From NCBI GenBank assembly GCA_017470165.1, contig JAFUEX010000024.1, positions 75,398 through 139,397 on the forward strand: a stretch of DNA of 64,000 nucleotides, written 5' to 3'. Below the pieces are notes generated by a model that had not been told where the DNA came from, ran no database searches, and was given only the letters and a program-made list of their open reading frames with translations. Each line of letters starts with the position of its first letter. Position 1 is the first letter of the stretch. This document shows, piece by piece, positions 3,647-15,037 of the stretch. A program made the position numbers and the translations under genes. This DNA is from Alphaproteobacteria bacterium (lineage in GTDB: Bacteria > Pseudomonadota > Alphaproteobacteria > RF32 > CAG-239).

Positions 3647-5119
3647 TTATTTTTCGTCTGCCTCGTCTTTTTCGTCCGTTTTATCTCTCGAATTGGGCTT
3701 CGGAGCCCCTAGACCGTTTGTCGGATCAACCGTGAAAACGAGCCCAAGACCGGCAGCGCGTTCAGCATCAGCGGCTATTTGTTCGTCGACCTCGGCCGCA
3801 TCCCCACCCATTTCGGATATAATTTGCGAACGTGACGCAAATCCGCACAAAACTTTTTCCTTTTGGGCTGCAATTTCCTGTTGCGGGTTGACATACGCCC
3901 AACCAGCAGGCTGGAATCGTGCCCGATGGAATTTTTGCGGATCCTGCGTGTATTCGTTGATATTGACTTCAAGCGCACCGGATAGAACTGCGGCTTCAAT
4001 GAATTTATCCCAGATTCGGCGCAACACCTGATGGACAAGGCGATTTTGTTCTTGCCGATGTTTGCGCTGTGTGATATTTAATCCCATTCTGCTGGACGAG
4101 AAGTTTGTTTTGCTCATATCGTTCGTAAATTCTTCATACGTCAGCTGAATTGTGGCCGCCAAAGCGCGCAAACTTTGCGCCATGTACGGCTCGTATGAAG
4201 TTCCACTTTCGGCCGGAGCATTGAATTTGATATCTTCTCCGGGGGCGAGCGTCGTGATGGTTCCGGTTGTGATTTCAGCGATAGCCTCTCCGGGACCGGC
4301 ATCCTCATCTTCATCATCCGCATTTAATGTGCCATCCGCGACCGGCGTTGTGACAAATCCGGCCAGCATGGCGGCGAGTTTTTTCTTTGCAAGTTCTGCT
4401 TCATCATATTCGAGCATCTCGCGGGCTTTGAGCAATCCGGCAAATGCTTCCGGAACGCCTCGCACCTGTCCAGCCCACAATTGTTTGAAGTAATGGCAAA
4501 CCTCATCTGCCGGAACTTCAACCGTTTCAAGGTAATTTCCGGACACAATGCTTTCGTTCGGATGTTTTTTATAAAAAATGTATGACACGCGGTGTCCTGC
4601 TTTGTCAAATTTAACCCCTGCAACAGTTTCGCCGCCGTCAGCGTCGGCGTGATTTTCATCAAGCTTGCATTGATCAGCCTGCAGGAGCTGTAATTTTAGA
4701 GGGACGACGCCGAAATTTTCAGGCACAAAACGGATAAACACTTCACCGCCTTCCCAGCGTTCGCGAACTGCCAAGGAAAGGAGACTTGTCAGGTCATTTA
4801 CGCCCTCAAGGTCGCACTCGTGGCACCATTCGCTCCAAAGATGTTTTAATCTTTCGCAAAGATCACAATCATCATGTTTTGGCAAAATTCTGATGCCGGG
4901 ACCCACTATATTGCTGGCAATTGTTTCGTATGCGCTGTTCATGTACGGATAATTTCGTGTTAAATCTCGGGATTTTCTACGCAGTTCATCAAGCGAATAA
5001 ATGATAGCCGTATTCGGACCGGCCGAAGAAACACGCCAAGCACGCATACGACCGCGTCCTGTGGCTCCGAATGCAGGATCGGTCATTAGTCTTTTGGATC
5101 TTTTTTTGAATTTGAACAT
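3647..5119 (-). CDS. Portal protein, lambda gpB family.
   Basis: 490 aa. Positioned after the gpW-like gene and before the protease gene. The C-terminal tail is acidic. Confidence 0.7.
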   Translation of the reverse strand: MFKFKKRSKRLMTDPAFGATGRGRMRAWRVSSAGPNTAIIYSLDELRRKSRDLTRNYPYMNSAYETIASNIVGPGIRILPKHDDCDLCERLKHLWSEWCHECDLEGVNDLTSLLSLAVRERWEGGEVFIRFVPENFGVVPLKLQLLQADQCKLDENHADADGGETVAGVKFDKAGHRVSYIFYKKHPNESIVSGNYLETVEVPADEVCHYFKQLWAGQVRGVPEAFAGLLKAREMLEYDEAELAKKKLAAMLAGFVTTPVADGTLNADDEDEDAGPGEAIAEITTGTITTLAPGEDIKFNAPAESGTSYEPYMAQSLRALAATIQLTYEEFTNDMSKTNFSSSRMGLNITQRKHRQEQNRLVHQVLRRIWDKFIEAAVLSGALEVNINEYTQDPQKFHRARFQPAGWAYVNPQQEIAAQKEKVLCGFASRSQIISEMGGDAAEVDEQIAADAERAAGLGLVFTVDPTNGLGAPKPNSRDKTDEKDEADEK

Positions 5120-5343: not shown

Positions 5344-5489
5344 GATTGCCTCGCATTTCGTATATCTAAAACTATTTTAGTCATTTTTGCCTTAAATGTT
5401 CAAAAAATTTTTTTTATTTCTTGACTATTCTTGTTTTTTATTGATATAATTCTGGCATAAAGTCATTTTTGACTTAAAATTTATTTTGT

Positions 5490-5566
5490 CGCGGGGTGGA
5501 GCAGTTAGTTAGCTCGCTGGTTTCATACTCCAGAGGTCGATGGTGCAAATCCATCTCCCGCAACCA
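5490..5566 (+). tRNA. tRNA-Met (anticodon CAT), initiator-like, encoded by the phage.
   Basis: 77 nt beginning CGCGGGGTGGAGCAG and ending TCCCGCAACCA, similar to E. coli tRNA-fMet. It has a C1:A72 mismatch, a TTCATAC anticodon loop, a perfect T-arm and an encoded CCA. Confidence 0.8.
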
Positions 5567-5660
5567 ACACAAGAAGATATTGTGGTATTTCTTCTTAAAA
5601 AAAGTGTTCCACACGTCGGTAGTTGTGAGCTCGATGTCGTTAATGTGAACTCTCATTTAT

Positions 5661-5745
5661 AGGACTGTAGCTCAATGGTAGAGCGTTCTGTGTGCACAGA
5701 TTAAACCGAGCAGTTTGTATGTGGGTTCGACTCCCGCCGGTCCGA
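5661..5745 (+). ncRNA. tRNA-like sequence with a non-canonical anticodon arm; possibly a tRNA pseudogene or decoy.
   Basis: Acceptor, D-arm (GCTC-AATGGTA-GAGC) and T-arm (GTGGG-TTCGACT-CCCGC) are canonical. The anticodon region is a perfect 14-nt palindrome (TCTGTGTGCACAGA), which gives a 4-nt loop. A long hairpin-forming variable region follows. Confidence 0.45.
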
Positions 5746-5883
5746 CCTATTACTTATGTCTGAGAGAACGCCGGTCGGATCGGCTTAAGACAAAACAGCT
5801 TAACCGAAAAGATTGGCAAGGAACACCGGATGGTTGCAAACGTCTGGTGTTTTCTTTTTGACTTTCAAGAAGAACGTGCTCCT

Positions 5884-5953
5884 GGCGGGAGGCTGCTGGG
5901 ACGGTTCCTCGCTCTGCGGTTCCCGTAGCCGGGCTGCGGGTGATTCGCTTTCG
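5884..5953. repeat. Left copy of a ~70-bp GC-rich direct repeat flanking the moron cassette.
   Basis: Shares the 18-nt exact core tgcggttcccgtagccgg and ~70% flanking identity with the copy at 7310-7380. Confidence 0.8.
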
Positions 5954-5999
5954 ATTGCGTATGTCATTCATGGCGCGCGCGGGCGGAGCCTTCCCAGAG

Positions 6000-6042
6000 C
6001 TTTTGCTTAAAGCAAAAGAAAGGTGTCGAATTCGACACCTTT
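6000..6042. terminator. Two adjacent perfect palindromes forming a probable (bidirectional) terminator.
   Basis: The palindromes are cttttgcttaaagcaaaag and aaaggtgtcgaattcgacaccttt. They lie just 3' of the minus-strand small ORF and are followed by T-rich sequence. Confidence 0.5.
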
Positions 6043-6047
6043 GGATG

Positions 6048-6197
6048 TTATTTGCCAATGTTATAGGCTTGGCATGCGGGCTGGTATCCGTGTTCGCACC
6101 GGATCTTGTTTTCCCAAACATCACCGACAATCAGCAAAAAATACATTGCCGCAAAAAATAAAATCATTGAAAAACCGTCTAAGATGTATTTAATCAT
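6048..6197 (-). CDS. 49-aa small membrane protein, paralogous to the ORF at 14018-14167.
   Basis: Translates to MIKYILDGFSMILFFAAMYFLLIVGDVWENKIRCEHGYQPACQAYNIGK, about 70% identical to the 14018 peptide. It is below the 60-aa cutoff of the ORF track. A terminator hairpin lies downstream. Confidence 0.6.
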   Translation of the reverse strand: MIKYILDGFSMILFFAAMYFLLIVGDVWENKIRCEHGYQPACQAYNIGK

Positions 6198-6525
6198 TTT
6201 CTGTAACCTTTTTTAGTGTTGTGCCATCTTAGCTATGAGAAGGTGGCGGACTCAACTAAAGCCGGTTACAGTTTGTAAGGCTTCGGGCTTTATTCAATAT
6301 ATTCGGCCTCTCATCCGCCATAATTTTGGTATAAAAAAACGCCTTCTTCGGGGGCGGTATACCGCTGTAACCTGTTTTAGTATCTACAGTATACACAAAA
6401 AATAGTTAAAAGTCAGTTAATAAATTCATTTTTTTATTTTTTTTGCTTTCCGGGAGTTGAAGCCGCTCGAAAGCGTGGGATTATTTCCGTTCCGGTCTTG
6501 TATTCTCCGCGCTCCCGGAGCGGTT

Positions 6526-7170
6526 TTATTCAAAATATCTTTTCAGCTTACCATCTCCTAGAATTTTTGCTACATCCTCTGCTTCTATTACATCTCCATT
6601 ATCATTGTAAAACTCCACTATGTTTGCCACGTTAAAAACGTGGTTTTCCTTGCGAAGCTTGCAATATCCGACAAGGTAAATTTCAGCCGAATATTCATTT
6701 TTTTGCTTTTGGGTTTGCCTTAATTGTTTTTTATAATCGCTCATCATTTCGCTATAGTAGGCTTTTTCTCCAGCCTCACACTTCGGGACTGAATCGATTT
6801 TGTATTGCATATCGTCAATTGCGGCCCTATCTTCAAGAATTGCCTGTTTAAATTCTTTGTTGTATTTCAGAATAAGCTGGATTTTTGCCGTTCTTGTCGT
6901 TGTTTCATCTTTGGAGTTGATATATTTGAAGGTCAAATCAATTCCGGTTTGGCTCCGCCACAGGACGTCGACAAATTCCTCATTTTCTTTTCGGAGTATT
7001 TCAGGCTTTTGTTTTTCTTTCAAATTGACATAAACAATCAGGGAGGCGATGATCCCGATTATTGCTCCACCATAAATAAAATCACAGCAGTTAAAAACAA
7101 CTGGAATAAACATAACCCAGAAGCCGACTATCGCGGATTTTACTATTGTGTAATCTATTTTTTTCTTCAT
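6526..7170 (-). CDS. Moron-encoded membrane protein (two N-terminal transmembrane helices plus a soluble domain), function unknown.
   Basis: 214-aa ORF with very low GC relative to the phage. It is inserted between TerL and gpW inside the direct-repeat-bracketed cassette. Possible -35/-10 elements lie in 7171-7300. Confidence 0.6.
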   Translation of the reverse strand: MKKKIDYTIVKSAIVGFWVMFIPVVFNCCDFIYGGAIIGIIASLIVYVNLKEKQKPEILRKENEEFVDVLWRSQTGIDLTFKYINSKDETTTRTAKIQLILKYNKEFKQAILEDRAAIDDMQYKIDSVPKCEAGEKAYYSEMMSDYKKQLRQTQKQKNEYSAEIYLVGYCKLRKENHVFNVANIVEFYNDNGDVIEAEDVAKILGDGKLKRYFE

Positions 7171-7309
7171 AACCCTGTGCCTTTTCTTAAAGATAATACT
7201 CCAAGTTTGACTTTATTATCCGATAAAAGTTCTAAAAAGTCAAGCATAAAGTCAAATTTGCCTTATTTTTTTGACTTTATGTGAAAATTGTTTATTGTAT
7301 GGTGCTCAT

Positions 7310-7380
7310 GGCGGGGGCGGCTTGGCGCGATTCTCCGCATTGCGGTTCCCGTAGCCGGAACGCGAGTGTTACGCTTTTGG
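7310..7380. repeat. Right copy of the ~70-bp GC-rich direct repeat.
   Basis: See 5884-5953; same orientation. Confidence 0.8.
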
Positions 7381-7450
7381 GTACGTCTACCGATAATGGC
7401 ACGCGCCGGCGTAACCAACCCAAGGACTTTTTGCCTTGAAAGTCAAAAAG

Positions 7451-9385
7451 CTATAATGATCCAAAACGTCCGACAATGCGACGCTTTTTCTTTTTTTGCA
7501 GGATCTTTGGTTTCGGTATGCTGTCAATGTTGACATCTGGGTTTTTCTCAACCATCTCGCGCACTTTTTCCGCATATTCCTGCCGTGCCAACATTCTTTC
7601 CCAACGGCGCCGCAAGTCAAGTCCTTGAAGCTTCATGCCTTCGAGCGCGGCGAGTGAATATCCGAAGATATCCAACGCTTCGTTGCGCTTTCGTCCGGGA
7701 CGCAATGCGTAATATCTTATTTTTCGACCTTTGACATATGATGTTTTGGCTTCTTCAGCTGTCAGCTGGACAAAGTGGTTTTCGTCATAGTCCATGTTGA
7801 AGTGACAATATCCGGGGGCTTGCGGATCATCAAGGCGCAAGCGGTTGTAGATGACATCTTTGACGGTGTCGGTGCCGACGAGGAAGAAGTCCAAATTCGT
7901 CTTTTTGAGCTTTCCGGGGGCTTTTTTTATAATCGGGCGACCTTCTCCAGCCATACCTTTAACCGCCCAAACACGCCGGTTCCATCGTTCCTGACAGAAT
8001 TTTCCGACCATTTGCGTCAAATAACCGCTATCCACACAGCAGGCGGATATAGACATTTCACCGACGAGTTCGTGTTCAATTGGCGTTAAGAGTAATTCGT
8101 CCAGTTCTTCCCAGATACGCTCCGCACCCGGATCACCGAGCAAAACTTTTTTACCAAGTCCATAGCTTTGATTGTTTGATGTCCAACCGATTCGCTCCAG
8201 CTCTATACGGTTATCTTGGACGTCGACGCCGGCCGTTATAACAACGACATCAGGCGGTGCTTTGCTGTAGGTTTCGCGGCGAGCGACCAACTTATCTTCC
8301 TCTACGCGCTCTCCTTTGTCTTCCCAAACTTCGCCTAGTGAAGTGTTAATGAATGTTTTTAATGCTTCCGGATCTTCTTTTGCATCCAAAAACGACCGAA
8401 CAACTTCCTCTAATTTCACCCATGGCGAATAACCTTCCCACAAAGCAAATCCAGCGTGCCCATGGAATGGCTTTGTTGCTCTCCATTCACCGAGACTGAT
8501 TGCGTGCCAACGCTCCACATCATTCCAAAGGCACCCGCAATGCGTGCAGGCGTACATTGCTGTTTTTGCGCTATCCTCTTTGGTTTCGAGCTTTTCCCAT
8601 TTGACGTTTTTCCACTCAATCCGCTGATATTCTCCGCAATGTGGACAAGGCACATAAAAATAACGTTGGTCGGATCGACGGAATGATGCATCTATTTTGC
8701 TCATGCCCTTTATCGTTGGTGTTGAGCACTTTATAACTTTTCTATTCCAAAACGTTGTCGTTCTTTTAACCGCCAACTTTACCGGATCGCCTTCCTGACC
8801 GGCTGACAATGGATAGCGGTCGATTTCGTCGAGCAATACAATTCTGATTGGACGGCTGGCCAAACTTGCGGCAGAGTTCGCTCCGGCCATGGTAATATGT
8901 CCGCCGGGGAACGATTTGTGCAATACCGTATTTCCACTGTCTTTACTGTCGGACACTTTGTTCTGCAGGCACGGTGTATCACGGAGCATCGGCGACAGAC
9001 GGTCGGTTGACCAACTCTTGGCAACCTCGACCGTTGGTTGAAGAAGCAGAATCGGGCAAGGATCCTTGTCTATGTAATAACCCACCGCATTGTTTAACAT
9101 TTCTGTTTTGCCTACCTGCGAGCTGGCGACAATCGTTATTTCTTCGCAGTCAATGTCTGATATGGCATCCATAAGCCCGCGCTGATATTCGGCTCGGCTG
9201 GTATTCCATTGTCCGGGCTCGGCTGAGCTTTCGGACGATAAGACGCGGTTTGCATCCGCCCATTCCGATATTGTTTGACGTGGCGGTAGCTCCAATCCTT
9301 TCAGAAAGCCCTCGCAAAAACTGCGCACCCCCTCAAAGATCAGCCATTCGTCCGAGAATTGTTCTGGCGCACCGTTCACACTCAT
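7451..9385 (-). CDS. Terminase large subunit, GpA family.
   Basis: 644 aa (lambda gpA is 641 aa). Has a Walker A-like motif (SSQVGKTE) and sits directly downstream of TerS. Confidence 0.8.
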   Translation of the reverse strand: MSVNGAPEQFSDEWLIFEGVRSFCEGFLKGLELPPRQTISEWADANRVLSSESSAEPGQWNTSRAEYQRGLMDAISDIDCEEITIVASSQVGKTEMLNNAVGYYIDKDPCPILLLQPTVEVAKSWSTDRLSPMLRDTPCLQNKVSDSKDSGNTVLHKSFPGGHITMAGANSAASLASRPIRIVLLDEIDRYPLSAGQEGDPVKLAVKRTTTFWNRKVIKCSTPTIKGMSKIDASFRRSDQRYFYVPCPHCGEYQRIEWKNVKWEKLETKEDSAKTAMYACTHCGCLWNDVERWHAISLGEWRATKPFHGHAGFALWEGYSPWVKLEEVVRSFLDAKEDPEALKTFINTSLGEVWEDKGERVEEDKLVARRETYSKAPPDVVVITAGVDVQDNRIELERIGWTSNNQSYGLGKKVLLGDPGAERIWEELDELLLTPIEHELVGEMSISACCVDSGYLTQMVGKFCQERWNRRVWAVKGMAGEGRPIIKKAPGKLKKTNLDFFLVGTDTVKDVIYNRLRLDDPQAPGYCHFNMDYDENHFVQLTAEEAKTSYVKGRKIRYYALRPGRKRNEALDIFGYSLAALEGMKLQGLDLRRRWERMLARQEYAEKVREMVEKNPDVNIDSIPKPKILQKKKKRRIVGRFGSL

Positions 9386-9698
9386 TCTTTATCAGCCTTT
9401 TGACCTTGCGGGCATCATTTTCAGCGGACACTTTGGCCGCCAGTCGTGCCGGTAATCCGGCGAGCTGGTCACGGAGCAAACGCCCAAGGTTGAACGCCAA
9501 GCGTTCTTGCTCTGCCTTATTGATAATGATGCCCTGTTTTTCTTCATACTCAACCTTTTTCAGCTTTCCTTCGTATTCGCCTCTTTCGGGGGGGGGGAGC
9601 TCACTTGGAAGTTCTGGCACTACGTAGTCAGCCGGTCCGAATTCTTCTTCAGCTGTTGATAATTTCGGAGATTGCCCTTTGAATTTCCTTGATGACAC
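9333..9698 (-). CDS. Paralog of the TerS C-terminal domain, as a separate overlapping ORF.
   Basis: The 121-aa ORF is clearly homologous to residues ~100-190 of the adjacent TerS (KKVEYEEKQGIIINKAEQERLAFNLGRLLRDQLAGLPARLAAKV vs RKIEYEQKMGTVVNKEGVEKAAFGVSRILREKLKALPNRLAPKV). It contains a C10 homopolymer at 9587-9596. Confidence 0.5.
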   Translation of the reverse strand: MSSRKFKGQSPKLSTAEEEFGPADYVVPELPSELPPPERGEYEGKLKKVEYEEKQGIIINKAEQERLAFNLGRLLRDQLAGLPARLAAKVSAENDARKVKRLIKNECERCARTILGRMADL

Positions 9699-11791: not shown

Positions 11792-12445
11792 CTACCTTGC
11801 CGTCTTCAATGCATAGTCCATCGCCTTATCTAATTCCTTAGCAAAATTCATTTGATAAATACGTTGAGCCATTTTGTGCAAATTAAGCACCGGCCTTATA
11901 TCTTGCTTCTTTTTTCTTAGAAAAATAGGCGTCAATTTTCGACTTTTTCCAGCTCTTGTGACAAGCAATCTATTACCGCGCTTGCTTTTAATGAAAAAGT
12001 TACCTTTACTTTTGCTACCCTGTCCGGGGTAGGCTTGTTTTACTCCATATCCGAGTTTACGTCCTTTGAGTGGCACCCATCTATATTTTGCTGACTGTCC
12101 AAGGGTTCTACGCTCTGTCATATGTTCTCCCATGAGTTCAGCTATACCCCAGTGCGTAACGCCAACGATTGAGTGCATTGCATCTAATCCGTCTTTTTTA
12201 TTTGCCGGTATGGCATGGACCGCACGCGCAGGGGATGGTCCTTGTCCTACTTTCGCATGGGTGGCGTTTTGAAGATACGTTTTATGAACCACATTTAATC
12301 TTAAATTTGCTAATTTAACAACATCATCCGCCGCTTTAATAGCCACTCTTGTTAAAGCGAGCGAACAAGCGAATGGTAGCTGTTTTTGAGCTATATCGTC
12401 GAGATATTCTGGGAAATCTTTTAAATCTATGTTTATTTCTGCCAT
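11792..12445 (-). CDS. Hypothetical phage protein, first gene of the late/packaging operon.
   Basis: ORF with an AAGAGGG ribosome-binding site 7 nt upstream of the MAEINID start. No motif was recognised. Confidence 0.4.
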   Translation of the reverse strand: MAEINIDLKDFPEYLDDIAQKQLPFACSLALTRVAIKAADDVVKLANLRLNVVHKTYLQNATHAKVGQGPSPARAVHAIPANKKDGLDAMHSIVGVTHWGIAELMGEHMTERRTLGQSAKYRWVPLKGRKLGYGVKQAYPGQGSKSKGNFFIKSKRGNRLLVTRAGKSRKLTPIFLRKKKQDIRPVLNLHKMAQRIYQMNFAKELDKAMDYALKTAR

Positions 12446-12530
12446 TTTTCTGCCCTCTTGCCTTATTGTAGTCATAAATGACGGAAAAAGTCAAAAAATA
12501 ATTTGATAATTTTTTTTATATTTTTTTCCA

Positions 12531-12831
12531 ATTCACCGATTTCACCGATTTTAGGGGAATTTTGGGTTATTCCCTTATAGAATTCAAAAGATATACTGAA
12601 AAATTACAAAAAAGTTATAAAATTGGTTAAATCAGTGAATAATGTTAAAAATCAAAGACTTAATCTGTTAAGCAATATAAAGCACACCCCCATTTTTGAA
12701 AAAAAAGTTGCAAAAAACGGTGAAATTAGTCAATCGGTGAATAAAAAAATTGCAAAAAATCTGATTTTTTAAAACCTTAACTCAAAAATCCGGCTTAAAA
12801 ATGGATGATTTTTCCCTTAAAATCGGTGAAT
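12531..12831. promoter_or_regulatory. Divergent regulatory region with iterated ATTCACCGATT motifs.
   Basis: Direct copies at 12531-12541 and 12541-12550. Inverted copies (AATCGGTGAAT) at 12732-12742 and 12821-12831. A degenerate copy at 12629-12640. A GGGAAT-n8-ATTCCC palindrome at 12555-12575. Confidence 0.5.
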
Positions 12832-12904
12832 TTTCGCATTTTCGAATGCGTAAAAGTCAAAAATGACTATTTACTTGACTTTATCTTGCGGTTAGATTAT
12901 ATTA

Positions 12905-12927
12905 AAAATAATGCTTGACATTTGTAC
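12905..12927 (+). promoter_or_regulatory. Promoter-like element AAATAATGCTTGACATTTGTA upstream of the Bro-N gene.
   Basis: Contains a TTGACA -35 hexamer. A near-identical 22-mer recurs at 14213-14236. Confidence 0.45.
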
Positions 12928-13125
12928 GGGGTTTTGGCAAGCTGAAGACCTAAAAACTTGATCAATACGGCTTCAACACCCCGTCAGAGTGTATTTTTTA
13001 TGCCTGTTTGGCGGATGAGAGCTGTAAATATATTGAATAGCAGCCAAAGCCTTTATTGATCGGCTTTTAGTGAGTCCGCCGCCTTGCTCAATCTCAAGCG
13101 GTAACATCTAAAGAAAGATCAATAA

Positions 13126-14007
13126 ATGAATAATATTACCGTATTTAATTTTAATCAAAATCAAGTCAGAACTCAAACTATCGACAGCGAGCCGTGGTTT
13201 TGTTTGTCGGACGTTTGCGACGTGCTTAATATACAGAGATGTAGGATTGAGCGACTTTCTGCAGATGGGTGGATTAAAAATCAACTCATCGATAAATTAG
13301 GCAGATTTCAGGAAAGATATTTTATCAACGAACCGAACTTATACCGTTTAATTTTCCGTTCCAACAAACCACAAGCCCAAGCATTTGCCGATTGGGTATA
13401 TAATGAAGTGTTACCCAGTATTCGTAAAACCGGCGGTTATGGCTCTGTGGACGTTCCTGCGCTTGCCAAAGCTGTGGCAAATGAGTTGAAGTTTGTGCCG
13501 ACAACCGTGAGATTGCCTCTTGATGTGGAAGCGTTCTTCAGGAATTGTGTTGAATTGTCAGTCGCCGTTACGTCATGCGCAGAAACATACAACGCTTATA
13601 AAAAATGGTGTCAGTCCGAGGGTTATTGTCCGCTGACAGCCAATAAGCTCGGTCGCTCTTTGAAGGCTCTCGGCGTTCAAAAATGTTCAACTAGACGTGG
13701 TGAGAAGGCCTATCGTTTGGCATTAAAGGAGCCACAACCGGAGAATTACCGCTATAATTTTACTCCGGTGACGGAATTTTGCGGTGCCGGTGTGTATAAA
13801 AATAGGAGTGGTCAAGTCTTTCAGGCTATTGCCGGATTTGATGATAAGATTTTTTATACTTATTTTAATATGCATACCGCACGGGCTGAAGGCAAGAGCC
13901 ACGATATTCCGCTCAAGGTTTTTAATGCCAATGTCGTGGCAAAGATGACTTCCAAGACGGAGCTTATTCCTTTGGATGGTGAAATTGACTATGTTTCAGC
14001 TGATTAA
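13126..14007 (+). CDS. Bro-N domain antirepressor-like protein with a PriCT-like C-terminal domain.
   Basis: The N-terminal motif (FNFNQNQVRTQTIDSEPWFCLSDVCDVLNI) is typical of Bro-N/KilA-N. The C-terminal ~60 aa are homologous to the C-terminus of the phage primase at 16919-19414 (YKKWCQ...NKLGR...GEKAY). Confidence 0.6.
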   Translation: MNNITVFNFNQNQVRTQTIDSEPWFCLSDVCDVLNIQRCRIERLSADGWIKNQLIDKLGRFQERYFINEPNLYRLIFRSNKPQAQAFADWVYNEVLPSIRKTGGYGSVDVPALAKAVANELKFVPTTVRLPLDVEAFFRNCVELSVAVTSCAETYNAYKKWCQSEGYCPLTANKLGRSLKALGVQKCSTRRGEKAYRLALKEPQPENYRYNFTPVTEFCGAGVYKNRSGQVFQAIAGFDDKIFYTYFNMHTARAEGKSHDIPLKVFNANVVAKMTSKTELIPLDGEIDYVSAD

Positions 14008-14017
14008 GGAGATATGC

Positions 14018-14167
14018 CATGATAAAATATATTTTGGACGGCATCTCTATGCTGATGTTCTTTGCCTTGCTTTATGCGTTACTTATTATTGGTGATGCGT
14101 GGGAGAATAAAATCCGCTGTGATCGAGGTTATCAGCCCGCTTGTCAGGCAATGCGGTTAGGTCGGTA
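14018..14167 (+). CDS. 49-aa small membrane protein, paralog of 6048-6197.
   Basis: AAGGAG ribosome-binding site, then ATG. Translates to MIKYILDGISMLMFFALLYALLIIGDAWENKIRCDRGYQPACQAMRLGR and is followed by a rho-independent terminator. Confidence 0.6.
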
Positions 14168-14171
14168 AAAT

Positions 14172-14203
14172 AAGGGCGGTTTAATTACCGCCCGATTTTT
14201 TTC
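14172..14203 (+). terminator. Rho-independent terminator.
   Basis: gggcggtttaattaccgccc hairpin followed by a T7 run. Confidence 0.6.
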
Positions 14204-14212
14204 GTTATTTAT

Positions 14213-14260
14213 AAAATAATGCTTGACATTTTGTAGTTTATAGGCTACATTATATATAAA
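14213..14260 (+). promoter_or_regulatory. Sigma70-like promoter (duplicate of the 12905 element) for the DUF4160/DUF2442 module.
   Basis: AAATAATGCTTGACATTTTGTA with TTGACA, a 17-nt spacer, then TACATT/TATATA. Confidence 0.5.
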
Positions 14261-14282: not shown

Positions 14283-14537
14283 ATGCCAATTATCGCTCGT
14301 TTTTATGGTCTGGTTATTAAAATGTTTTTAATCGGTAGCGAACATAATCCGCCGCACATTCACGTTGTTTATGGCGAATTCAGTGCTCTGTATAACATTC
14401 AGACGCTGGAATTAATGGAAGGTGATTTGCCATCACGCGCTGCTGCTATGGTTAAAGAATGGCTCAGTATTCATAAAGATGATTTAATGGAAATGTGGAA
14501 CAGCCAAAAATTCAAGACTTTGCCACCATTAAAATAG
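14283..14537 (+). CDS. DUF4160-family protein.
   Basis: 84 aa. The N-terminal pattern (IIARFYGLVIKMFLIGSEHNPPHIHVVYGEF) matches the DUF4160 family, which is usually paired with DUF2442. Confidence 0.55.
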   Translation: MPIIARFYGLVIKMFLIGSEHNPPHIHVVYGEFSALYNIQTLELMEGDLPSRAAAMVKEWLSIHKDDLMEMWNSQKFKTLPPLK

Positions 14538-14548
14538 GGAGGTGTCCG

Positions 14549-15037
14549 ATGTTTATTAAAATTAAAAAAATAGAGATTCTGCCGGATTATGCTATCAAGG
14601 CAACCTTTGATCATGATGTTGTCAAAACCTATGATTTTAAGCCTTTATTTGATAAATATCCGGTATTTGAGCCGCTTAAAAATGAGACGTTTTTTGCAAA
14701 CGCTGTTATTGATTGCGGTGGTTATGGTTTGATGTGGACTGATGATATTGATATTGATGCTGGGGAACTTTGGTATAACGGCATAACGACGCTTGATACC
14801 GAACAGGATATTGTAAATTATCTTAATGCCGTTGTTAATGAAACAGACACCAAGCTGTTTATCAAAGCTTTAAAAGATATTGCAAAGTCAAAAGGTGTTA
14901 ATGATTTGGCAAAAAAAATGGGAGTAAATCGTGAAAGCCTTTATAAATCGTTAGACGGTGAGCGCAAACCCAAGTATGAAACAATCGACAAGTTTCTACG
15001 GGCAATCGGCATGAAAATAACATTTTGTCCGGCATAA
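14549..15037 (+). CDS. DUF2442 domain fused to an HTH addiction-module-antidote-like domain.
   Basis: GGGAGG ribosome-binding site before the ATG at 14549. The N-terminus (IEILPDYAIKATFDHDVVKTYDF) is DUF2442-like. The C-terminus (KDIAKSKGVNDLAKKMGVNRESLYKSL) is HTH antidote-like. Confidence 0.55.
   Translation: MFIKIKKIEILPDYAIKATFDHDVVKTYDFKPLFDKYPVFEPLKNETFFANAVIDCGGYGLMWTDDIDIDAGELWYNGITTLDTEQDIVNYLNAVVNETDTKLFIKALKDIAKSKGVNDLAKKMGVNRESLYKSLDGERKPKYETIDKFLRAIGMKITFCPA

Follow-up and report, generated by a model that had tools for sequence, protein, structure and literature searches.

What are two very small, related membrane peptides doing in a single prophage, and how might their synthesis be controlled? 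The question is raised by a stretch of 64,000 nucleotides (nt) from an Alphaproteobacteria metagenome-assembled genome (contig JAFUEX010000024.1, positions 75,398 to 139,397; this whole stretch is called the window). Both peptide genes of the window lie in one prophage, copy 1 as a stand-alone cassette and copy 2 directly behind a Bro-N antirepressor-like gene. A preliminary description of this DNA had drawn attention to the two genes themselves. It missed the regulatory leader that they share, which we judge to be the most informative feature of both loci. On the evidence of alignment, both peptide genes lie in operons headed by the same promoter and leader, and the first gene of the operon is Bro-N for copy 2 and the peptide gene itself for copy 1. 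By analogy with known phage systems, we tentatively favour an RNA-gated single-pass membrane peptide with a toxin-like or host-takeover role, a reading that we would place somewhat short of probable.

The peptide genes and their family

The two genes and their immediate signals are arranged as follows.

6048-6197, minus strand: peptide gene copy 1, 49 codons plus stop, a cassette standing alone between large terminase and portal
6019-6042, minus strand: terminator-like hairpin after copy 1, a stem of 10 base pairs (bp) plus a T-run
14006-14011, plus strand: Shine-Dalgarno (SD) site of copy 2, AAGGAG, overlapping the stop codon of the Bro-N gene
14019-14168, plus strand: peptide gene copy 2, 49 codons plus stop
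14174-14193, plus strand: terminator-like hairpin after copy 2, 7 bp, 6 of them GC, plus a T-run

Copy 1 translates to MIKYILDGFSMILFFAAMYFLLIVGDVWENKIRCEHGYQPACQAYNIGK and copy 2, read from 14019-14168, to MIKYILDGISMLMFFALLYALLIIGDAWENKIRCDRGYQPACQAMRLGR. GenBank already lists both open reading frames (ORFs) as 'hypothetical protein' (MBQ9236124.1 and MBQ9236132.1). The preliminary description had located copy 1 correctly, but its interval for copy 2, 14018-14167, begins one base early and is out of frame. Its estimate of about 70% identity agrees well with the 35 of 49 positions (71%) that are identical in an ungapped alignment of the two peptides (BLASTP E = 6e-29 for this single comparison). 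Copy 1 lies between the large terminase gene (7451-9385, minus strand) and the portal gene (3647-5119, minus strand). This site had been given as a terminase/gpW moron; a 74-residue ORF does occupy the place of 'gpW', but it has no gpW match in Pfam. Copy 2 starts 11 nt after the Bro-N gene (13126-14007, plus strand), the gene behind which it had been reported.

Judging from their pattern of divergence, both ORFs encode proteins and have evolved under strong purifying selection. We regard them as coding because the differences between the copies fall mostly at third codon positions (7, 4 and 31 at the first, second and third positions of 44 aligned codons). The comparison of substitution rates that had been proposed as a check gives a nonsynonymous divergence (dN) of ~0.15 between the copies, with synonymous sites saturated, and the ratio of nonsynonymous to synonymous divergence (omega) is 0.05-0.18 in less diverged homologue pairs. 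The frame is kept in 16 further copies from related contigs, where length varies in the last few residues only, and all 19 distinct peptide variants are intact. An SD site precedes every copy examined, strong and 5-9 nt before the ATG in coupled copies, weak (AAAGG or AAGG) in stand-alone copies. A hairpin with a T-run follows each copy in the window, in keeping with the terminators noted earlier. The earlier claim that these are real genes is therefore upheld. The contrary view, that they are chance ORFs or a non-coding repeat, might draw on their shortness and on the lack of a database family, but we consider it almost certainly wrong. Synonymous sites are saturated and yet the peptides remain 71% identical with a third-position bias. 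Frame-breaking indels, which had been named as the likely mark of a non-coding element, occur in none of the homologues found. Finally, the likeness between the copies at the DNA level runs from the ATG to the stop codon and ends exactly there, the flanks being unrelated when 500 nt around each copy are aligned.

A single-sequence search of 5.8 billion proteins returned 6 clusters and a profile search 20, and all 20 come from (pro)phage contigs. An exhaustive search of 1.84 billion representatives with a hidden Markov model (HMM) yielded 7 genuine short members (P0001 plus six new relatives). Two other HMM matches (P0007 and P0014) were rejected as repetitive proteins on the basis of their sequences, and short CEHGYQPAC-like matches at three loci (L018-L020) were taken as chance. 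No member of the family bears a name or a Pfam domain. Scans of both peptides against Pfam, NCBIfam and PHROG gave noise only (best matches Pox_A9, E = 7, and TspB_C, E = 0.37), and a match of copy 1 alone to phrog_15926 (E = 0.021) was treated in the same way. A PADLOC scan of both peptides found nothing, a profile search of the PDB with the family found no relative, and Foldseek comparison of the AlphaFold model with BFVD and the PDB found nothing. The tblastn search for phage relatives that the preliminary description had proposed came back empty against 50,697 cultured phage genomes, as did a megablast search of the locus against the same set. By these searches, the peptides form a small, phage-restricted family that has not been described before.

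Each peptide has ~49 residues and one hydrophobic helix (about residues 8-27), followed by a conserved juxtamembrane motif, G-[DST]-[VA]-W-E-[ND]-x-[VI]-R-C-x-x-G-x-x-x-x-C. Residues G25, W28, E29, R33, C34, G37 and C42 are invariant across the family, as is the CX7C spacing. AlphaFold2 modelling on the family alignment (predicted local distance difference test score, pLDDT, 87) predicts that residues 2-35 form one long helix, whose end is the first part of the motif; a turn (36-38) and a short helix (39-44) complete the motif, and the two invariant cysteines flank the turn. The earlier picture of a membrane peptide with a conserved Cys-containing C-terminus is thus borne out by the motif, the predicted helix and the cysteine spacing. 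The N-terminus carries 1-3 K or R. Beyond the hydrophobic segment, 16 of 19 variants have a tail whose net charge is at most zero, and in distant members this tail is strongly acidic. Because the CX7C spacing is invariant, we lean towards an N-in/C-out topology in which C34 and C42 would staple an extracytoplasmic tail by a disulfide.

Some of these features might also be expected of a secreted peptide, in which the N-terminal helix would be a cleavable signal whose removal frees a disulfide-looped signal or toxin of ~24 residues. K or R near the N-terminus, the conserved Cys pair and the acidic tail would suit such a product, and invariant G25 with A, V, I or G at -3 fits the signal-peptidase rule. 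Nevertheless, we find this quite improbable, given that the hydrophobic stretch of 17-20 residues is long for a signal peptide, AlphaFold predicts an unbroken helix across the putative cleavage site, the best conserved residues lie on both sides of it, and no receptor or exporter gene lies nearby.

A leader RNA of the c4 and sRNA-Xcc1 kind

Between the -35 box and the ATG, the ~230 nt ahead of copy 1 (6198-6430, minus strand) can be aligned with the ~230 nt ahead of Bro-N (12890-13125). Among the related loci, which are numbered here with the prefix L, nhmmer finds the leader before Bro-N or Rha genes in L004, L006, L009, L011, L013, L030 and L031, before the peptide-only units of L015 and L016, and three times in tandem in L021. 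The parts of the two leaders in the window are listed below; RBS denotes the ribosome-binding site.

6388-6416, minus strand: sigma-70-like promoter of the copy 1 cassette, CTGACT-17-TATACT, aligning with the TTGAC -35 element of all related leaders
6333-6373, minus strand: 5' leader of copy 1, with a b1-like duplicate of the RBS target, AGGTTACAG (6373-6365)
6242-6319, minus strand: c4/sRNA-Xcc1-like RNA core of copy 1, with closing stem GGCGGA/UCCGCC plus ACC, hairpin 1 loop AAUAUAUUGAAUA, and hairpin 2 at 6283-6259
6264-6271, minus strand: antisense loop CUGUAACC of copy 1 hairpin 2
6201-6208, minus strand: target GGUUACAG of copy 1, overlapping the weak SD (AAGG) and the start of the SD-AUG spacer
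12915-12943, plus strand: promoter-like site of the Bro-N-peptide operon, TTGACA-17-CAAGCT, assigned through alignment with the other leaders
12960-12999, plus strand: 5' duplicate of the Bro-N RBS target, GATCAATA, and an attenuator-like hairpin with a U-run
13010-13083, plus strand: c4/sRNA-Xcc1-like RNA core of the Bro-N operon, with hairpin 2 loop UUUAUUGAUC at 13052-13061
13117-13126, plus strand: Bro-N target GAUCAAUAAA of loop UUUAUUGAUC, running into the Bro-N AUG
13126-14007, plus strand: Bro-N antirepressor-like gene, 293 residues, with a Bro-N domain, a D5-like winged helix and a C-terminal domain of ~80 residues

Read from 5' to 3', the leader consists of the promoter, a copy of the target, alternative small hairpins with a conserved CCCCG loop followed by a U-run, and then the closing stem (GGCGGA/UCCGCC, then RCC), hairpin 1, hairpin 2, a further hairpin, the SD and the AUG. 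In the 5' leader of copy 1, the alternative hairpins pair GCGG with CCGC and CGCC with GGCG ahead of the U-run, an attenuator-like arrangement as found in P1 immI. The hairpin 1 loop AAUAUAUUGAAUA is conserved on stems that differ between units, and the hairpin 2 loop is variable. When sequences were folded singly, 8 of 11 cores gave the closing stem and two hairpins at minimum energy, with differing stem sequences.

In L021, an ORF of 842 residues called 'Rha/Bro-N' (7150-9678) spans all three tandem units of leader and antirepressor gene. We read this ORF as a gene-calling error and its repeated peptide segments as translated leader RNA.

In the variable hairpin 2 loop, 9 of 10 units carry a sequence complementary to the region that separates SD from AUG in the gene directly downstream, over 6-10 contiguous Watson-Crick pairs; this sequence differs from unit to unit. 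Mean duplex energies are -8.3 kcal/mol for cognate and -1.8 kcal/mol for non-cognate combinations of loop and RBS, and none of 20,000 permutations reached the observed cognate mean. An exact duplicate of the target, 6-9 nt long, is present in the 5' leader of at least 8 of 11 units. Besides the two pairs of the window, the following combinations occur.

L006: loop UUUUAUGG, target CCAUAAAA
L021, second unit (L021b): loop UUUGUAUA, target UAUACAAA
L021, third unit (L021c): loop CUAUGC, target GCAUAG
L013: loop CUUGUAU, target AUACAAG
L030: loop UUUUACGU, target ACGUAAAA
L004: loop GCUAA, target UUAGC

The peptide-only cassette of L017 adds another case, a loop UCUUAUG that matches the RBS sequence CAUAAGA. 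This type of cassette is present in at least four phages (L015, L016 and L017 besides the window) with two different matched pairs of loop and RBS, and we therefore regard it as a maintained unit rather than a deletion scar. For copy 1, the complementarity of CUGUAACC to GGUUACAG upstream of the AUG is what would be expected of a type I toxin-antitoxin system, where an antisense RNA is complementary to the initiation region of the toxin; in L015, L016 and L017, loop and RBS have changed together.

The kinship of this RNA can be approached through two Rfam families. The C4 consensus starts with AUGGcgG, ends with cCcgCCaCC and has two hairpins, the second of which bears the antisense loop. The outer stem of the window leaders, AUGGCGG...CCGCCACC, matches it. 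The leaders also share the layout of C4. A closing stem leads into RCC, there are two hairpins, the loop of the second is antisense to the RBS of the following ORF and covaries with it, and duplicate target sites (a1/b1) lie upstream on one transcript. The C4 covariance model (RF01695), which scores P1 itself at 68.8 bits, gives no match at E <= 10 on either window leader, and the sRNA-Xcc1 model (RF02221) gives none on the two window leader cores. The homologous leader of L017 scores 56 bits with sRNA-Xcc1, above the gathering score of 53, and that of L013 a sub-threshold 33 bits. The window leaders have the appearance of variants in which hairpin 1 has lost its small inner hairpin.

A separate element of the same kind was observed upstream of copy 1.

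6440-6520, minus strand: second, upstream sRNA-Xcc1-like element, a full-length match to RF02221 at 38.2 bits (gathering score 53)

It sits just 3' of a gene for a membrane protein with a WYL-like domain (TM-WYL, described below) and upstream of the promoter that serves the copy 1 cassette. L016 (40.5 bits) and L017 (26.8 bits) have this additional element as well.

RNAs of the sRNA-Xcc1 family have been described mainly as virulence-linked small RNAs of Xanthomonas. When viral contigs were scanned for the loop pattern of hairpin 1, more than 120 loci were found, from which 74 non-redundant sRNA-Xcc1-like RNAs were used to count Pfam domains in the first downstream ORF. By summed Pfam counts, this ORF was of antirepressor type in 73 of the 74 (Bro-N 20, P22_AR_N 13, KilA-N 13, AntA 12, Rha 9 and ORF6N 6). 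A small hydrophobic peptide was the first downstream ORF in none of 108 cases in the viral contigs. A small membrane ORF at the end is not a general feature of antirepressor operons, as it was seen in 0 of 67 evaluable sRNA-Xcc1 operons. Published observations are in line with these results: in APSE phages an sRNA-Xcc1 precedes an ORF6N gene (10.1101/2020.03.17.996009), C4, isrK and sRNA-Xcc1 occur side by side in Xylella (PMC12189769), and sRNA-Xcc1 precedes the type I toxin gene symE in the most widespread integron cassette of Xanthomonas (10.1101/2025.06.18.660453).

Sequence comparison thus suggests that RNAs of the sRNA-Xcc1 type behave in phages as c4-like leaders of antirepressor genes, with a specificity loop that appears to co-evolve with its target RBS and could be re-aimed at a different kind of gene. 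The RNA is of a known kind, and its direct control of a small membrane peptide is an unusual variant within the sample examined.

Possible role of the peptide and its genomic contexts

Under the RNA-gated reading that we favour, the leader RNA would hold translation off in the lysogen, by analogy with P1 c4-icd-ant and with sRNA-Xcc1-symE. The peptide would be made only once this control is overcome through induction, infection or loss of the RNA. It might then insert into the inner membrane and exert a toxin-like, host-takeover effect on the envelope of the host, in the manner of Kil, Icd or Hok. Since the gene occupies the regulatory position otherwise held by an antirepressor or a type I toxin, its product is likely to be harmful or decisive when expressed. 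The earlier suggestion of a toxin-like peptide or membrane modulator thus gains indirect support from the proposed antisense gating, and it also suits the published association of sRNA-Xcc1 with symE (10.1101/2025.06.18.660453). We favour analogy rather than homology between this peptide and Icd, Kil or Hok.

A bolder proposal is that an immunity RNA of the c4/sRNA-Xcc1 type, which normally gates antirepressors, has here been re-targeted onto a 49-residue membrane peptide, forming either a new cassette of RNA antitoxin and membrane toxin or a membrane-acting arm of the lysis-lysogeny switch. We consider this unlikely as it stands. If it is true, the peptides would found a new family of disulfide-stapled, Hok-like phage toxins whose expression is set by a programmable code of loop and RBS.

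Several observations weigh against an RNA-gated toxin. The window leaders reach no Rfam threshold, and their single-sequence folding z-scores are not significant. RNAalifold recovered only 3 pairs from a MAFFT alignment of the leaders, because that alignment misaligned the stems. It is important to note that we infer repression by the leader RNA only from its complementarity to the RBS. When K and R alone are counted, the close family has 3-5 after the helix versus 1 before it, which favours a C-in orientation and argues against a disulfide. Profile scans, together with comparison to translated Icd, revealed no sequence relation of the peptides to a known toxin, Kil or Icd. Finally, nhmmer finds no such leader in the unrelated phages that carry distant members of the family, coupled there to unrelated ORFs, and the function of the peptide would therefore be independent of the leader RNA.

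The genomic contexts bear on what else the peptide might be. The prophage, whose large terminase is ~50% identical to those of Roseobacter and Paracoccus phages, uses two positions that close relatives also occupy. In position A the peptide lies directly behind a Bro-N gene, beside a dUTPase operon or a DUF4160 gene (L005-L014). Position B, between the genes for large terminase and portal, holds the peptide gene by itself in the window, L015, L016 and L017; in L004 the peptide at position B instead follows a 304-residue Rha/Bro-like gene by 1 nt, with a WYL gene upstream of that. The order in L030 is WYL, Bro-N, peptide and HicAB. In L021 it is Rha/Bro units, a 105-residue ORF, peptide and HigBA, beside a Kiwa system (KwaA/KwaB). 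Distant members lie in the early regions of unrelated phages, coupled to unrelated acidic upstream ORFs. These locations make it very improbable that the peptide is a holin, an antiholin or another lysis-timing peptide. A small protein with one transmembrane helix and a charged C-terminus could serve in that capacity, but across ~12 different contexts the gene is never beside an endolysin or spanin gene, and it resides in early or accessory regions rather than in a lysis cassette. The holin idea was accordingly dropped, as no context examined has an adjacent lysis gene.

Proteins encoded upstream of the peptide weakly share a C-terminal domain of ~80 residues, G[AS]G[VI]Y...FN...K[ML] (E = 0.013), which forms residues ~205-293 of the window Bro-N protein and a free-standing 105-residue ORF in L021 (9681-9998). 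It has no Pfam or PHROG match. The peptide might be a membrane anchor or partner of this domain, tethering or releasing the antirepressor-like protein. Such a role would account for the close-family genes that begin 1-11 nt after a protein ending in the domain (window Bro-N, L004, L006-L013 and L030), and for L021, where the domain stands as a separate ORF between the Bro gene and the peptide. We nevertheless judge it improbable. Copy 1 and the units of L015, L016 and L017 have no gene for the domain alongside, distant members follow unrelated acidic proteins, the likeness of the domain is weak, and a database search with its alignment found the L021 ORF only. Moreover, the antirepressor gene was followed by a small membrane ORF in none of the 67 other sRNA-Xcc1 operons.

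A non-toxic accessory membrane protein deserves more weight, and we regard it as somewhat unlikely but serious. It could be a bitopic regulator, in the way that MgrB binds PhoQ, or a superinfection-exclusion factor made together with the antirepressor. Its size, single helix and short Cys-containing tail suit this role, as do best conserved residues at the membrane boundary, where a protein-protein interface would be expected, and neighbours that are accessory or defence genes (DUF4160/DUF2442-HTH, HicAB, HigBA, Kiwa and WYL). An exclusion factor, however, acts in the lysogen, where the peptide would not be made if the leader is c4-like. In addition, no membrane-protein partner is conserved beside the peptide in the contexts examined, and the PADLOC scan gave no match.

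The surroundings of the two copies include the following further features.

6526-7170, minus strand: TM-WYL, a 214-residue membrane protein encoded next upstream of copy 1, with hydrophobic helices at its N-terminus and weak WYL similarity at its C-terminus
5421-5450, plus strand: strong promoter-like site of a tRNA operon, 11 of 12 matches, with TG
5490-5566, plus strand: tRNA-Met(CAT)
5661-5747, plus strand: tRNA-like gene of 87 nt, assigned no anticodon by ARAGORN
5820-5853, plus strand: terminator of the tRNA operon

TM-WYL has a weak PADLOC match to an RT-associated WYL/YodC model (E = 2e-6), and WYL genes, homologous or analogous, precede the Rha/Bro-peptide units of L004 and L030/L031. 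The tRNA operon (5421-5853, plus strand) lies on the opposite strand within the gap between the large terminase and portal genes. Its 87-nt gene is 100% identical in L015 and L016, where the surrounding DNA is only ~82% identical. Between the tRNA terminator and the peptide terminator there is a G+C-rich stretch of ~150 nt (5870-6010) that is not conserved in L015 or L016; it has no Rfam match, and its sole ORF looks non-coding. An ORF of 227 residues at the start of the late operon (11792-12475, minus strand) matches a PHROG 'minor tail protein' at its C-terminus (E = 2.5e-17) and is oddly placed, upstream of the methylase and terminase genes.

Right behind copy 2, a DUF4160 gene is followed by a gene for DUF2442 plus an HI1420-like helix-turn-helix (HTH) 'antidote' (14283-15037, plus strand), and these are probably a toxin-antitoxin pair. 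The promoter region of this pair contains AATAATGCTTGACATTTTGTA (14215-14235), a sequence found again around the Bro-N operon's -35 box (12907-12927), which suggests a common operator for both. Several copies of TTCACCGATT / AATCGGTGAA, inverted and direct, lie at 12516-12832 in the 650-nt intergenic region upstream of the Bro-N operon and are candidate repressor operators.

Few phage genes are as poorly understood as those for small membrane proteins, and this peptide family is without any annotation. Its regulatory context, with a wiring that resembles that of an antirepressor or type I toxin gene, gives it a testable role. Should the peptide turn out to be toxic or related to the switch, the locus would constitute a compact, RNA-programmable module for killing or commitment.

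Comparison with known systems

A close parallel is the immI module of P1 and P7 (c4, icd and ant). In P1 its promoters are followed by the target copies a1/b1, by a hairpin (GCGG/CCGC/GCGG) that ends in a U-run and by the c4 RNA of 77 nt; a2/b2 lie over the icd RBS about 50 nt further downstream, and icd and ant complete the module. The window leaders resemble it in having 5' target copies, an attenuator-like hairpin with a U-run, an RNA of ~80 nt and a first ORF ~50 nt further on. The resemblance extends to the closing stem AUGGCGG/CCGCCACC, the two hairpins and a second loop complementary to the RBS region of the first ORF, as well as to an antirepressor gene in the operon and a small, presumably host-directed protein co-encoded with it (Icd, 73 residues, in P1). 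C4 has a long lower stem where the window leaders have a purine-rich internal loop, and the Icd gene of P1 precedes the antirepressor gene, whereas the membrane peptide gene follows it or stands alone. Icd and SimA of P1 were translated as candidate relatives of the peptide and proved to be unrelated.

Membrane toxins of type I systems such as Hok/Gef, TisB, Ldr, TxpA and BsrG are similar in having ~50 residues, an N-terminal transmembrane helix and a short polar Cys-containing tail. They are often prophage-borne and have a long 5' leader, and an antisense RNA blocks translation at their RBS, as is proposed here. The peptide has a predicted helix and a CX7C tail, and charge counts do not decide its topology. 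No type I toxin model of Pfam or NCBIfam matches the peptides, and Hok_Gef (PF01848) is not listed even at E <= 10. Unlike the overlapping or divergent antisense genes of those systems, the RNA here is encoded upstream on the same strand, as is typical of c4. Small bitopic regulators of the MgrB type, with ~47 residues, a single helix and a short tail containing two functionally important cysteines, offer another comparison; they have no sequence relation to the peptide, which differs further in being phage-encoded and, as proposed, RNA-gated.

Unlike typical sRNA-Xcc1, the two window leaders have no small inner hairpin within the hairpin 1 loop and stay under the detection thresholds, and the putatively gated gene encodes a 49-residue membrane peptide rather than SymE or an antirepressor. 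The sRNA-Xcc1-symE cassette is the closest precedent for placing such an RNA in direct control of a small membrane peptide.

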